Source: Methanobacteriota archaeon (GTDB lineage Archaea; Halobacteriota; Bog-38; Methanoflorentales; Methanoflorentaceae). Taken from it: DNA of 64,000 nt. A program made the position numbers and the translations under genes. Positions 8,180 to 49,461 of this stretch are shown here, piece after piece. Below the pieces are notes generated by a model, which worked only from the letters and a program-made list of their open reading frames with translations, did no database searches and was not told where the DNA came from. The stretch covers positions 224,001 to 288,000 of the forward strand of contig CAVRAO010000002.1 in the NCBI GenBank assembly GCA_963719035.1, in the 5' to 3' direction. The first letter of the stretch is position 1; each line of letters starts with the position of its first letter.

Positions 8180-8254
8180 TAGCGGGGAGTGGATTTGAAC
8201 CACTGGTCTACGGGTTATGAGCCCGTCGGGATCTCCTGACTACCCCACCCCGCT
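8180..8254 (-). tRNA. initiator tRNA-Met (CAT)
   Basis: Reverse complement AGCGGGG...ACGGG-CT-CAT-AA-CCCGT...GGTTCAAATCC-ACTCCCCGCT-A; A1:U72 pair and three G:C pairs in the anticodon stem; no encoded CCA. Confidence 0.97.
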
Positions 8255-26831: not shown

Positions 26832-27270
26832 GAATTAATAATCGGATGTTGCCGTATAAACAATTAACGTTTGTAAGCTTGACAACAATATAAACCTTTT
26901 TAAGGAATTTTCGATCGCAACGCATTGTAATGCAACACAGATAGATTGCCAAGCAAGTTGGATCGACACTTACAGCTGATCTATGTAACCGACAGATGCT
27001 TTTTTCACAGTAAGGTGTTCTGCATCGGATAGCAAAAATGCTCAACAATTAAGCTACTAAACAAGCGGTTGTTGATGGGGGGCCTTATTACTGCAAAGCA
27101 CTAGAGTTAAGAACTTGATATTCATATTCGGACTGCAGAGCAGGCCGGAGCGGCCGAGACCGGTATATAGATACTAGGGCGCTCGTACTCATAAAGCGCT
27201 AGCGTAACGCAACCAAGGCACTTAAGGCTTAGCCCAACTCCTTTTGGAGACGATATATAAGGTGTACAAC

Positions 27271-28785
27271 ATGGAGTTTGATTTAAAAGCTCATCTGAAA
27301 TTCAGCGACAATCTCCCAAAAGAAGCAGATTTCGAACTGCAAAAAGCAATAGAAGCTGCAAACAACGTACTTTTCATTAAAGGCGTGCCAAGCAACTCTG
27401 TCAATGAAGCAGGAAGGATAATTGAATGGCATACGCACGCCAATGAGCTTTACGTCAGAATCGTCAGCGGCAGATATACTCGATCGCACGAAGCACTTTT
27501 GCGCTTTCGAAAGGCCCTCGGAATTATTATGGGGTCTAAATATCGGATAGGTATCAGAGGCTATGAAATTGAAGAGTTTACAATACTAATTGAAGCTGAA
27601 ACTCCAGTGCATCTCAAACTCCCCTTTGTGAAAGAGGTGTCATACGAAAACAAACTGTTAACGCTCAATCTTTTGGTTGACGAACAAGACGTAGAGAACA
27701 AGATACCGGACCGAATCGTAAGTCTTGTCGAGGAGAAGATTAAACAAGAACTCTACGGAACAAAGCTTGAGAATTGGGAGTTGGTCTGGACAAGCCCACA
27801 AAAAACGGTCCACTTTCGACTCGATCCTACTGAGGAACTAAAAAAGCGTCAATGGATTAAGCACGGAATGAGTCGAGGACAATGGATTTTCGGCCCTCAA
27901 ATAACGAAGGTCTTCAACACTTTTAAGAGAATCATCGAAAAGGAAATACTCGAACGGCTTGGCTATTCAGAGATGATTTTTCCCAAGATGGTTCCGTGGG
28001 AAGTCTGGAAACGATCTGGGCATGCACGCGGCGTTTATCCAGAAATTTACTACATTTCAAGTCCTAAATCGCGTGATCCCGAGTATTGGGAAGAGGTAAC
28101 CGACTATTATAAAGTCACTAATGAGATTCCCTTAACGTTGATCAGGGAAAAAATCGATGACCCCCTCGGTGGCATGTGTTATGCGCAATGCCCGTCTTTT
28201 TGGCCTTTCATGCAAGGTGAAACGATTTCCTCGCATTCGCTTCCGGTCAAGGTGTTCGATCGATCGGGCACGTCACATCGCTATGAGAGTGGGGGCATAC
28301 ACGGTATAGAACGTGTTGACGAGTTTCACCGAATTGAAATCGTGTGGGTCGGTGACCATAACCAAGTCAGTGAAGAAGCCCAGAAACTTGAAAAGCGCTA
28401 CACCCGCATTTTTAATGACATCTTAGATCTCGATTGGAGAATGGCACGTGTTACGCCATGGTTTATGGCTCAGGAGGGACTAATTGACACGTCATCTGAT
28501 CTTTCGGTTGGCACCGTAGATTATGAGGCATATCTGCCGTATCGTGGTGAACGTGCTGAGAGTGAGTGGCTTGAATTTCAAAACGTAAGCGTAAACGGTG
28601 ATAAATATCCTCGCGGTTTTAACGTAAAAACCCAAAAAGGAGAATTGTGGTCGGGATGTTCGGGTATCGGGTTGGAAAGATGGGCTGCTGCCTTTTTTGC
28701 ACAGAAAGGTTTAGATATCGAATTTTGGCCGCCGAAATTCGCTAAGCTTATTGGAGAGCTGCCAGAGGGGATACAATTCCTTTGA
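27271..28785 (+). CDS. serS: seryl-tRNA synthetase, methanogen type (SerRS2)
   Basis: SGRYTR.H, IPDRI, YAQC, SHRYESGG.HGIERVDEFHRIE, WSGCSG.GLERW. Confidence 0.95.
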   Translation: MEFDLKAHLKFSDNLPKEADFELQKAIEAANNVLFIKGVPSNSVNEAGRIIEWHTHANELYVRIVSGRYTRSHEALLRFRKALGIIMGSKYRIGIRGYEIEEFTILIEAETPVHLKLPFVKEVSYENKLLTLNLLVDEQDVENKIPDRIVSLVEEKIKQELYGTKLENWELVWTSPQKTVHFRLDPTEELKKRQWIKHGMSRGQWIFGPQITKVFNTFKRIIEKEILERLGYSEMIFPKMVPWEVWKRSGHARGVYPEIYYISSPKSRDPEYWEEVTDYYKVTNEIPLTLIREKIDDPLGGMCYAQCPSFWPFMQGETISSHSLPVKVFDRSGTSHRYESGGIHGIERVDEFHRIEIVWVGDHNQVSEEAQKLEKRYTRIFNDILDLDWRMARVTPWFMAQEGLIDTSSDLSVGTVDYEAYLPYRGERAESEWLEFQNVSVNGDKYPRGFNVKTQKGELWSGCSGIGLERWAAAFFAQKGLDIEFWPPKFAKLIGELPEGIQFL

Positions 28786-41821: not shown

Positions 41822-44489
41822 CTATGTTCGTTTGACAATAATTGTCCCTTCGCTTAGCTTAATAACGTCGACGACCATTCCCTCCACAAACAGCTCTTTT
41901 TTAACAATGAAATCCGTCGGCAAAAACTCATGACCGTTAATCCTGACCGATCCCGTTCCGATTTGATCCGCGATTTCCTCAACAGGAACGCTTTTTATTA
42001 ACTCTGCTACACGCATTGCTTCAGACTTAAAACGCGGACCTAACGAACCAAGATTTGGACTAATTTCAGATATATGCTCGAGAATATCTGGTTTGCCTGT
42101 CCTATATTCAATATCGGCATTGAGCGTATTATTAATATCTGGCGCTCCGGTAGACATATCGCGATCTAAATACACATAAAGCCCTTCAATTCGAGCGTTC
42201 AGTGCGATGCGTTGCTCAGATTTGTATCGCCTAACACTGGCAATAATTTCTTTAACTAGCTCTCCTGTGCGACGGGCTTCCTGGACGTCTTTTTGAGACG
42301 CTGCTATGGCTATTTGCTGAACATCCCCTGTGGTGGTTGTCGATTCGGTAGAAGTCACGCCGAGTGGTTTTAGGCAAAGAACAGGCCACGAGTGTAAATG
42401 AACACTTTCATCGCCGGGGTTTATGTGCGAAAACAACTCCTCCGAAAAGAATGGACAAAATGGTGCTAGCAGCTTGGCAATCGTATTAAGCGCGAGGTGT
42501 AAAGCAGCGAGGCTGTACGCGTCCCGTTCATAGAGCCTTCCTTTAACCGCTTCGATATAATGGTCAGCTAATATATTCCAAACGAAAGATCGAATTTCTT
42601 TAAGGGCCTCGTCAAAGGCAAACCGGTCCATACTGGAGGTGACAGAGTCAACCAGCTCAATAAGATTACACATTAACCATATCTCACTTGGATTTTGAGA
42701 TCTATAAATGACTGGCTGGACTCCTTGAGTGAAATGTAACATGGCAAATCTAAAGATATTCCAAAGCTTGGTTAAAAATCTTGAAGAGGCTTTCAAGTCT
42801 TTTGTGTTATATGGAACGTCAGATCCAACTGAGCCCCCTATTGCTGCCCATTGCCGAAGCGCGTCCGTGCCATATTGCTCAATAACGCTTTCAGGAGCGA
42901 CGATATTACCAAGCGACTTGCTCATCTTCTGGTTGTCTTTACCGAGTACCATCCCATTGACTAAAACGCTTTCCCAGGGCTTGCTCCCCACGAGAGCGTC
43001 TGATCGTAGTATTGTATAAAACGCCCATGTCCTAATGATGTCGTGACCTTGTGGCCGCAATTGAGTGGGAAACTGTCGCTCGTACTGAGCGTTAGGCCAA
43101 CCTGCTGCATTTAGAGCAGAGAGCGATGAGTCCATCCATGTGTCTAATACGTCGTATTCAGGTGTAAAACTCGATGACCCGCATTCACAAACACGGGCAG
43201 GAGCTTCTTGAGTGGGATCCAAAGGCAACCAACTTTCTTCAGCAACCACGACCGTATCACATCCGTCACAGTACCAAACTGGAATAGGTGTAGCGAAAAT
43301 CCGTTGGCGAGAGATACACCAGTCCCACTCGACGCTTTCAGTCCAATTCTTCAAGCGATGCAATGAGTACCGACGGGATCCACTCAATCTCTGATGCTCG
43401 AGCGAGTATTGTATCCTTATTAATCTTTACAAACCACTGGCTCTCAGAAAGGATCTCAATCGGGGTTTTACATCGATCGTGAAATCCCACATTCTGCTCA
43501 ATGCGTTCCTGTTTTTGTAAGAGCTTACCGTTAAAAAGATCTCCGATAATGCGCTCTTTTGCCTCGCCAATGGTTAGGCCGCTGTATCGTGTATCAGTCA
43601 TGCGGCCATCTTTTCCAATCACTTTTTTAAGTCGCAGATTGTGCTTTTTCCACCAGCGCACGTCTTGCTTGTCGCCAAATGTGCAGATCATCACTACGCC
43701 AGTGCCAAACGTGGGATCAACCGCTTCGTCGCCAATTATGGCGACCTCCTCATCATAAAGGGGCGTTCGTACTGTCCCGCCAATTAAACGGACATAGCGT
43801 TCATCACTGGGGTTAACTGCAACAGCAACGCAAGCACCTAAAAGTTCGGGACGCGTTGTAGCTATTTCGACTGATCCTAAGTCGCTGCTTTCAAAAAAAA
43901 GATGATGAAGAATGGTCGACCGTGAGTCATAATCTACTTCAGCAAATGCGATAGCCGTCTCACAGCGTGGGCACCAGTTTACGGGGTGCTCATCTTTGTA
44001 AATGAGGTCGTTATTATACATTTGCACGAACGATTTCTGCGTCTTAGCGTAGTAGGCCTTATCCATAGTCACAAACTCTTGCGACCAATCTATGGAAAAA
44101 GCAAGACGCTGCATCGTTCCCTTCATCAACGCAATGTTTTCTCGAGTCAAGCTTTCGCACAGCCCTCTGAATTCTGCACGTGGGATCTGGTTTTTCGTTA
44201 CATTGTAGGTTGTTTCGACCTTTACCTCAGTCGGAAGCCCGTGACAGTCCCATCCTTGCGGAAATTTAACGTCACAGCCCTTCATACGCTTATAGCGCGC
44301 GATGAAGTCTATATAACACCAATTAAGGGCGTTTCCAAGGTGAAAATTACCAGTTGGATATGGCGGCGGCGTATCGATTATAAAGCGCTCTTTTATTTCC
44401 CCGCCGCGATAACGATACATGTCCGAGTCCCAAGCGGTCAGCCATTTTGACTCAATGTATTCATAATCAAAGTTCTTTGGTATAGCCAT
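41822..44489 (-). CDS. valS: valyl-tRNA synthetase, split by a +1 frameshift at 43370-43371
   Basis: DTPPPYPTG.FHLGN (HIGH), GWDCHGLP, DWCISRQR, KMSKS; deleting one G of TCG-GTAC gives EWIPSYSLHRLKNW, 888 aa. Confidence 0.95.
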
Positions 44490-48872: not shown

Positions 48873-49235
48873 TTGCCATCAGAAAATTTAAAAGACTTGA
48901 TGCCTTCAGATCCAAAAACAACAACAGAGCTTAGAAAGACGCTGAGCGGAATTACTGAGCTATGTGCTTTGCTAGAAAGCACGTTAGACCGATCTCTGAC
49001 TGAACCCTATATCGACGCAAATCAGTTCATCTCAAAGTACAACCATTTTCGTAACAACCTGTTTTTACTGCAGCCAGATGATGTCATAGAGGAGATGCTG
49101 ACTGAGATGCCCACGTACGTCTACACTGGCGACGATGCAGCCGATGTAGTAAATGTCAAACAACTTCTAGTTGAGGTATACCTCAAAAATTCGCAACTTA
49201 TGGCGTATCTTCAAAATCTGCTTGAACTTGGTTGA
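48873..49235 (+). CDS. hypothetical helical protein
   Basis: 120-aa ORF with natural composition; start may be ATG 48900. Confidence 0.65.
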   Translation: MPSENLKDLMPSDPKTTTELRKTLSGITELCALLESTLDRSLTEPYIDANQFISKYNHFRNNLFLLQPDDVIEEMLTEMPTYVYTGDDAADVVNVKQLLVEVYLKNSQLMAYLQNLLELG

Positions 49236-49303
49236 TTGCGATAGTAAACTCCTGGCTTTGATGGTTTTATACGCCGGGGTTGGGATTTGAACCCAAGCGA
49301 TGC

Positions 49304-49335
49304 GTCCTCTATAAAAGCCCCGCAGGCTTTTCTAT
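49304..49335 (-). other. 32-nt tRNA intron in the variable-arm loop (canonical BHB)
   Basis: GATG-CCTT-[GCA]-TAGAAAAGCC...GGCTTTTATA-GAGG-[ACG]-CATC: two 3-nt bulges around a 4-bp helix. Confidence 0.85.
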
Positions 49336-49368
49336 GCAAGGCATCAACAGGTCTCGAGCCTGCCGCGT

Positions 49369-49385
49369 TGGGACTCGTTGCCGAT
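49369..49385 (-). other. 17-nt tRNA intron in the D-loop (about position 21/22; relaxed BHB/BHL)
   Basis: GGAC-[TAA]-TCG-GCAA-CGA-GTCC-[CAA]; removal restores GCAGAGCGGACTAACGCG. Confidence 0.82.
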
Positions 49386-49461
49386 TAGTCCGCTCTGCCA
49401 CCCCGGGCATGCGCACTGATGTGCGTGCTTCTTATAGCAAAACTCCTATAAAGATTATTGG

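Follow-up and report, generated by a model that had tools for sequence, protein, structure and literature searches.

According to the reviews of archaeal transfer RNA (tRNA) splicing, Euryarchaeota with a splicing endonuclease (EndA) of the alpha4 or alpha'2 type contain few introns, and these are single, located at the canonical site and embedded in a strict bulge-helix-bulge (BHB) motif (PMC4090602, PMC6379350, PMC5829648, PMC4033280). Efficient cleavage of relaxed motifs is credited to (alpha-beta)2 and epsilon2 enzymes only (PMC6379350, PMC5829648). Here, we analyzed a 64,000-nucleotide (nt) stretch of contig CAVRAO010000002.1 (assembly GCA_963719035.1; the whole stretch is referred to as the window) from an mcr-bearing archaeon of the phylum Halobacteriota, whose family is known from metagenome-assembled genomes (MAGs) only. 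The minus strand of the window contains what is very probably a genuine and conserved tRNA-Ser(CGA) gene, present as a sole copy, with two noncanonical introns of the EndA type, one in the D-loop and one in the loop of the variable arm. An earlier model-generated annotation of the window, made from the letters alone (the sequence-only reading), had contrasted this gene with textbook euryarchaeal introns, which is fair in the light of these reviews. The host carries mcrA (McrA), and the window encodes YcaO/TfuA.

An intron in the variable region of a tRNA was reportedly described for Thermofilum pendens in a paper from 1989. Position 45/46 is named among the noncanonical intron sites (PMC4090602), and insertions into class II variable arms are reported for Asgard archaea (bioRxiv 10.64898/2026.10.13.758758). 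The present gene resembles these Thermoproteota and Asgard cases in that an EndA-type intron is found in the variable region and not in the anticodon loop. However, the reviews assign (alpha-beta)2 enzymes with a specific loop to those hosts, whereas an alpha'2 EndA is encoded by the Halobacteriota methanogen studied here, and within the long class II arm its intron occupies the loop. A relaxed motif of the HBh' type is known from the pre-tRNA-Glu(UUC) of Methanopyrus kandleri, whose intron is cut weakly by an EndA without the Crenarchaea-specific loop (PMC6379350, PMC5829648). Both hosts are euryarchaeal methanogens with an EndA lacking this loop, but the M. kandleri enzyme is (alpha-beta)2, in contrast to the alpha'2 enzyme of the present host, whose motif is located in the D-loop. 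Two introns per tRNA gene at noncanonical sites are also found in Thermoproteales (Sugahara et al. 2008, as cited in PMC4090602 and PMC4033280). These belong to another phylum with another enzyme type, and in the present genome neither intron has a look-alike: blastn-short searches with both intron regions against the own genome yielded chance words of 10 to 15 nt only, which gives no indication that introns were copied or transposed.

The nearest counterparts are the tRNA-Ser(CGA) genes of cultured Methanosarcinales. The tRNAscan-SE 2.0 supplement gives lengths of 151 nt for Methanosaeta concilii GP6 (marked as "novel" in version 2.0), 124 nt for Methanohalobium evestigatum, 120 nt for Methanohalophilus mahii and 119 nt for Methanococcoides methylutens, all four of which were missed or mistyped by version 1.3 (PMC8450103). 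With these long genes in the supplement, the D-loop intron, as well as the T-loop intron of Methanosaeta, is already contained in public gene calls. The loci of Methanohalophilus, Methanococcoides, Methanohalobium, Methanothrix and Methanocrinis represent the same gene with near-identical exons, the same D-loop intron site and the same HBh' architecture. In contrast to the family studied here, their D-loop intron measures 30 to 39 nt instead of 16 to 18 nt, and they have no variable-arm intron; the Methanotrichaceae possess a T-loop intron instead. A literature search covering titles and the beginnings of abstracts found no report of a variable-arm or D-loop tRNA intron for Methanosarcinales-like archaea or for this family, which is not proof of absence from print; PMC2237900 likewise contributed nothing on the subject.

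The coordinates that the sequence-only reading had given for the two inserts (Table 1) were exact. The anticodon CGA is located at 49356-49354, and the anticodon loop CUCGAGA is unbroken, so that the claimed absence of an intron at 37/38 holds as well. The T arm is normal, and the discriminator base is a G. The variable-arm insert is flanked by an outer helix GAUG/CAUC, which can be extended by a U-G pair, and a central helix CCUU (49341-49338)/GAGG (49309-49306), with the bulges GCA and ACG of 3 nt each; the inner helix comprises 10 positions (2 base pairs [bp], a G-A mismatch and 7 bp). This arrangement fits the hBHBh' geometry of two opposite-strand 3-nt bulges, a 4-bp spacer helix and flanking helices. 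In a BHB motif, the cut falls after the second bulge nucleotide. Cutting the variable arm at these places restores a GAUGC/GCAUC stem with a 5-nt loop. The GAUG/CAUC and CCUU/GAGG helices, the bulges and the restored stem agree with what the sequence-only reading had given.

The D-loop insert differs from the strict geometry. Its central helix GGAC (49391-49388)/GTCC (49374-49371) is preceded by the 5' bulge UAA and followed by an inner helix UCG/CGA with a GCAA loop, but the 3' segment CAA has no closing outer helix. This segment lies opposite the unpaired G13-C16, which leaves the short D stem as the sole closure, and the outer helix at the 3' site amounts to 0 to 1 bp in all 14 distinct sequences of the family. 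Because the 3' cut site is devoid of an outer helix, the insert represents a relaxed HBh' motif, a class defined in PMC6379350, and not a strict BHB. The intron is located at position 21/22 in our own numbering, to which 20b/21 is equivalent owing to an A repeat. The central helix takes up G18-G19, which would bar formation of the tRNA elbow before splicing. A self-splicing group I or group II intron was ruled out for both inserts, which are 17 and 32 nt long compared to the hundreds of nucleotides of a ribozyme core. No Rfam family was detected between positions 49100 and 49600 (E ≤ 10), except for a chance snoRNA match outside the gene.

Removal of both inserts at the bulges was required to obtain a canonical tRNA. 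ARAGORN detected nothing in the unspliced gene, and removal of a single insert led to distorted calls with invented anticodon-loop introns. The variant without both inserts was called as a clean type II tRNA-Ser(cga), its minimum free energy fold was a cloverleaf, and it resembles the uninterrupted orthologues. The expectation that standard annotation would miss the gene proved correct: it was detected neither by ARAGORN (intron mode on or off) nor by the Rfam tRNA model, be it at the gathering score, at E ≤ 10 in the surrounding 500 nt or at E ≤ 1 in the whole genome. The predicted product is a type II tRNA with G73, G1-C72, G30-C40 and a long variable arm. For the methanogenic seryl-tRNA synthetase (SerRS), the determinants G73, G30-C40 and G1-C72 have been described, and the size of the arm counts but its sequence does not (PMC9976931); all of the elements named there are present in the predicted tRNA. 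As the sequence-only reading had stated for this methanogen host, a SerRS of the methanogen type is encoded in the window.

The comparison with other genomes carries most of the weight. Of 23 genomes from the family, 19 contain the full gene with both inserts at the same sites, namely, 14 of the 17 from the same genus and 5 of the 6 from a second genus. The remaining four comprise two incomplete MAGs without the gene, one genome whose copy runs into a contig end, and one (G002, L016/L110) in whose copy the first ~22 nt are swapped for unrelated sequence; in the latter, the contig is chimeric or the copy truncated. In the 14 distinct sequences of the family, variable columns number 6 of 88 in the exons and 25 of 50 in the introns; the Fisher P value of 1e-8 for this difference overstates it, because the sequences are kin. 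The central and outer helices of the variable-arm motif are paired completely in 14 of 14 sequences, and the register of the motif is kept in 13.

To follow the inserts beyond the family, loci were collected with the 18-mer of the anticodon arm, using one genome per species. At least 119 loci were found, of which at least 111 are tRNA-Ser(CGA). Among the matches listed, on which all following counts of loci and variants are based, 8 are chance matches that are not tRNAs, and 5 are incomplete. Thirty-one have no insert at these sites ("Candidatus Methanoperedens," Methanogaster and two Thermoplasmatota MAGs), and 19 have the D-loop insert only (Methanococcoides, Methanohalophilus, Methanohalobium, Methanosalsum and Methanocomedens). 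Inserts in D-loop and T-loop occur in 40 (Methanothrix, Methanocrinis and Methanotrichaceae; L088 and L103 were placed here by their lengths), and 16 contain the D-loop and variable-arm inserts. The D-loop intron is thus found at the same site in 75 of 111 loci, from Methanosarcinaceae, Methanotrichaceae and some ANME-2, and is not peculiar to this organism. The intron-less loci (L026, L028, L030 and 28 more) match the predicted D-arm splice junction exactly; their 5-bp variable arm is uninterrupted, with a sequence unlike that of this family. The order GGAC-3 nt-inner helix-GUYY-3 nt-exon is present in 61 of 61 distinct variants from several families, with GUYY paired at 4 of 4 positions, although intron length varies from 16 to 39 nt and the inner helix from 2 to 11 bp. 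Within the inner helix, the sequence changes while the pairing is kept (UCG/CGA, UCU/AGA, UCC/GGA and others).

These distributions suggest that the D-loop intron is old and ancestral to a wide Methanosarcinales-like group, while the variable-arm intron appears to be a gain in the ancestor of this family and specific to it. In the Methanotrichaceae, a T-loop insert of ~32 nt accompanies the D-loop intron (L036, L038-L041, L044 and 34 more); the two lineages have thus each acquired a second intron of their own. The site of the variable-arm intron is rarely used, and nothing in this gene constitutes a new kind of element. One record labeled Candidatus Bathyarchaeia archaeon (L075) contains a gene that does not differ from the most frequent sequence of the family and is probably a misbinned or mislabeled contig.

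The splicing machinery was examined in the own genome and in relatives. The own genome contains one EndA locus with two adjacent PF01974 domains, split over two frames, and each of 5 relatives searched likewise has one locus. In 4 of 4 family relatives, EndA is one open frame of 348 to 352 amino acids (aa) (the called open reading frame [ORF] in G017 has 345 aa), and its Pfam domains comprise two N-terminal and two catalytic ones. Its residues 23 to 332 align with the alpha'2 enzyme of Archaeoglobus fulgidus (2GJW, E value of 5.6e-34; 1R0V, about 6e-34). At the place where chain 3P1Y, which we take to be a loop-insertion construct of A. fulgidus EndA, has about ten more residues, the relatives' proteins have no extra residues, and the enzyme is for this reason classified as an alpha'2 type that lacks the loop of Crenarchaea. 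An EndA of broad specificity, (alpha-beta)2 or epsilon2, to which the sequence-only reading had linked such introns, is hence not the enzyme of this lineage. A two-domain alpha'2 EndA was also found in the lineages of Methanohalophilus, Methanococcoides, Methanohalobium, Methanothrix and Methanocrinis wherever examined. The host also encodes the RtcB ligase, as an open frame of 484 aa.

The anatomy of the gene, the conservation of the inserts, the intron-less orthologues matching the D arm and the genes for EndA, RtcB and SerRS are direct observations. From them, we infer the following pathway from transcription to charging: a ~136-nt precursor would be transcribed, in which two hairpins would fold independently, the relaxed HBh' in the D-loop (17-nt intron at 21/22) and the strict BHB in the variable-arm loop (32-nt intron). 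EndA, which is of the alpha'2 type and the sole splicing endonuclease of the genome, would cleave within every 3-nt bulge, and the three exons would be joined by RtcB. End trimming and CCA addition would then yield an 87-nt type II tRNA with a 5-bp variable arm as the substrate of the methanogen-type SerRS. The sequence-only reading had further proposed that splicing gates serylation. This would hold trivially, since any precursor must mature, and would apply to any intron; the sequences give no indication of regulation. If anything, the idea would fit the D-loop insert better than the variable-arm insert, because the former ties up G18-G19.

Table 1. Features of the tRNA-Ser(CGA) locus and of synthetase genes in the window (introns as predicted)
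Feature	Position	Strand	Description
tRNA-Ser(CGA) gene	49272..49408	minus (49408->49272)	137 nt in this assembly and 136 nt in relatives; CCA not encoded
Exon 1	49386..49408	minus	Acceptor 5' strand, U8, D-stem 5' strand, D-loop through A21; surplus C in the 49405-49407 run
Intron 1 (D-loop, 17 nt)	49369..49385	minus	Relaxed HBh' motif
Exon 2	49336..49368	minus	D-stem 3' strand, G26, anticodon arm, variable-arm 5' strand and loop
Intron 2 (32 nt)	49304..49335	minus	Located where the variable-arm loop meets the 3' stem strand; strict hBHBh'
Exon 3	49272..49303	minus	Variable-arm 3' strand, T arm, acceptor 3' strand, discriminator G73
TATA-like box TATAAG	49431..49436	minus	~25 nt upstream of the mature 5' end
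Methanogen-type SerRS	27244..28785	plus	Pfam PF18490 tRNA_bind_4 (E value of 1.9e-44) and PF00587; expected charger
LeuRS, N-terminal catalytic part	43338-44489	minus	ORF
LeuRS, remainder and anticodon-binding domain	41822-43387	minus	ORF

Several observations weigh against two EndA-type introns in a functional gene. BHB-like geometry is frequent by chance: a scan for strict-like motifs (outer helix of at least 4 bp, central helix of 4 bp, 3-nt bulges, inner helix of at least 2 bp and intron of 14 to 60 nt) gave 1106 matches in 400,000 positions of this genome, corresponding to 0.38 expected per 137 nt, and HBh' geometry was about seventeen times commoner. Because of this frequency, the motif geometry alone is no evidence, and the weight rests on the comparison. 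Within the gene, exactly one strict motif was found, located at the variable-arm site; with an inner helix of at least 4 bp as the setting, it was missed owing to the G-A mismatch. One family sequence (L015) fits either a shifted register with a 29-nt intron or a relaxed register only. Covariation of the pairings within the family was not found above shuffles (observed values were reached in 120 to 476 of 500 trials), in contrast to the conserved variable-arm pairing described above. Since the helices are conserved and the shuffles match the scores, this test is uninformative and not negative; pairing was 94.6% in register and dropped to 50% or less when the partners were slid. In the assembly itself, an extra C disturbs the acceptor stem and EndA is split, both of which are probably assembly errors. 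Moreover, the D-loop motif has no outer helix, whereas the reviews restrict efficient cleavage of relaxed motifs to other enzyme types, and the EndA of the relatives has none of the extra residues of the loop-bearing 3P1Y chain. Finally, the contigs of four RNA libraries displayed the unspliced form only, which may be precursor or contaminating DNA, and such contigs cannot show small modified tRNAs. The sole joined junction in them belongs to an intron-less gene of another organism.

This lack of a spliced form would also be seen if the inserts were never removed and the mature tRNA permanently kept a D-loop expanded by a hairpin along with a variable arm of 47 nt. The GAUG/CAUC base of the arm is already formed in the unspliced precursor, and the relaxed nature of the D-loop motif would agree with retention as well. 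Nevertheless, we consider retention very improbable. The inserts are four to seven times more variable than the exons, as introns are, and both fit the geometry of 3-nt bulges and a 4-bp helix at which EndA cuts. A retained D-loop insert would block the contact of D- and T-loop at the elbow, and the insert-free orthologues demonstrate that the tRNA body can do without either insert.

The relaxed motif could alternatively mean that the D-loop insert is removed by an activity other than EndA, or by EndA with the assistance of a helper, and that only the variable-arm intron is an ordinary EndA substrate. The narrow specificity that the reviews ascribe to alpha4 and alpha'2 enzymes (PMC4090602, PMC6379350, PMC5829648) and the minimal outer helix in every family sequence point in this direction. 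In contrast, only one EndA locus was found per genome, the 61 variants all share the geometry of the central helix and of the two 3-nt segments, as predicted for measuring by EndA, and the weak cleavage of the M. kandleri HBh' intron is accomplished by an enzyme without the specific loop. In addition, an alternative outer pairing of 2 bp (G16-C17 with G43-C44 of the precursor) would accommodate the sole change seen, C to U, which is weak evidence. A separate or assisted removal of the D-loop insert is regarded as improbable, and removal of both inserts by EndA is preferred.

The acceptor stem requires separate consideration. In the window copy, its 5' strand reads GCCCGGGG, while GCCGGGG was found in 19 of 19 full-length relatives and in two RNA-library contigs (runs X4 and X5, 95-99% alike), in which base 49405 is left out. 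Retention of the extra C would lead to a product of 88 nt, as the sequence-only reading had it, whose acceptor stem is disturbed by a bulge or a C-C mismatch, whereas its omission results in 87 nt and a perfect 7-bp stem. The need to remove both inserts from the 137-nt gene thus stands, whereas the mature length is corrected to 87 nt in accordance with the relatives. If the extra C were real, the window copy might be a damaged allele or a pseudogene, and UCG codons might be read by the tRNA-Ser(UGA), whose gene is present in the assembly. Restriction of the altered strand to this genome would agree with such damage. However, the exons are otherwise equal to those of the nearest relatives, with one further difference, which lies inside the D-loop intron, and the related RNA-library contigs are without the extra base.

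Comparable breaks occur in other genes of the assembly. EndA is distributed over two overlapping frames of 255 and 131 aa (L031, G000:C2:670515-673754, outside the window), although it is intact in the 4 family relatives. The adjacent tryptophanyl-tRNA synthetase (TrpRS) consists of overlapping frames of 232 and 194 aa, while relatives have one 376-aa ORF and the gene is intact in G017; its reading frame is broken by one additional C within CC_GG, which is comparable to the surplus C of the tRNA. The leucyl-tRNA synthetase (LeuRS) of the window (41822-44489, minus strand) is represented by two ORFs with a 50-nt overlap (Table 1), probably owing to an assembly frameshift error. Because these apparent frame errors hit essential genes, the extra C in the tRNA is likely to be an assembly error too, and we regard a damaged allele as unlikely. 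The TATA-like box is a putative promoter of the gene. Relatives from the same genus have the word TATAAGAA at a similar upstream distance, and the second genus has an AT-rich word, ATATATGAAAG, at the corresponding place.

The tRNA census of the assembly (ARAGORN and Rfam output, re-read by eye) comprised 46 genes, one per anticodon of the set that we expect in archaea. The tRNA-Ser(CGA) gene fills the sole UCG gap: a second intact copy was absent from the assembly, and a regular-expression scan for CGA anticodon arms returned only T-loops and this gene. Of the 46 genes, 18 are interrupted, by 20 introns in all. This intron load is high compared to the ~8% of interrupted tRNA genes given for Euryarchaeota (PMC4090602). 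Sixteen putative introns are located in the anticodon loop (ARAGORN calls or readings by eye), and four are located elsewhere, namely, two in Ser(CGA), one in Ile(GAT) and one in a CAT tRNA. The sole tRNA-Ile(GAT) (G000:C2:89103-89209, plus strand, outside the window) contains a 32-nt insert at 23/24 in the 3' strand of the D stem, with a motif of the HBh' type (outer helix of 1 bp, inner helix of 7 bp). ARAGORN reported it as a tRNA-Asp with an anticodon-loop intron, and Rfam detected just the 3' 63 nt. The CAT-anticodon tRNA (Met or Ile2; G000:C12:157953-158076, plus strand, outside the window) has two introns, one of 31 nt at 17/18 in the D-loop within a strict BHB (outer helix of 4 bp, inner helix of 8 bp) and one of 26 nt in the anticodon loop. 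It was not detected by ARAGORN and remained below the Rfam threshold with 26.7 bits.

Taken across these genes, we lean slightly toward the view that the alpha'2 EndA of this family, without a Crenarchaea-type loop, routinely processes relaxed D-arm HBh' introns (candidates are that of Ser-CGA at 21/22 and that of the only Ile-GAT gene at 23/24) as well as strict BHB motifs at 17/18 and in the class II variable arm. By extension, the same might apply to Methanosarcinaceae and Methanotrichaceae. If true, the narrow specificity of alpha'2, derived from work on Archaeoglobus, would fail across Halobacteriota, and a euryarchaeal lineage would still be accumulating noncanonical introns. The genome combines a single EndA gene with four noncanonical introns, and two of these interrupt sole-copy genes and have relaxed motifs. 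The accepted correspondence of EndA type and intron type is thereby challenged in a way that can be tested. The genome constitutes a natural test set for how alpha'2 handles relaxed motifs and introns outside the anticodon loop, a matter that is treated as settled. This enzyme question is of more interest than the tRNA-Ser(CGA) gene itself. The gene, however, displays stepwise states across lineages (none, D, D+T and D+V) and thereby offers a compact system for studying the origins of archaeal tRNA introns, and an annotation without it leaves the lineage lacking a UCG-specific serine tRNA.

Besides missing the tRNA-Ser(CGA) gene, ARAGORN misnamed four other interrupted tRNAs of this genome, among them the tRNA-Ile(GAT) described above. 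In intron mode, the gene at G000:C2:436609-436705 was called Ser(aga) and reads by eye as Thr(GGT), C8:151159-151269 was called Stop(tta) and reads as Gln(TTG), and C8:441302-441389 was called SeC(tca) and reads as Arg(TCG), each with an intron at 37/38; these corrections complete the set of 46 anticodons. Extra copies of the 3' half of tRNA-Val are located at G000:C2:710498, C9:11801 and C11:72575, away from full genes, and resemble attachment-site remnants of integrated elements. Within the window, an uninterrupted tRNA-Met(CAT) at 8180-8254 (minus strand) is the sole tRNA that standard tools report.

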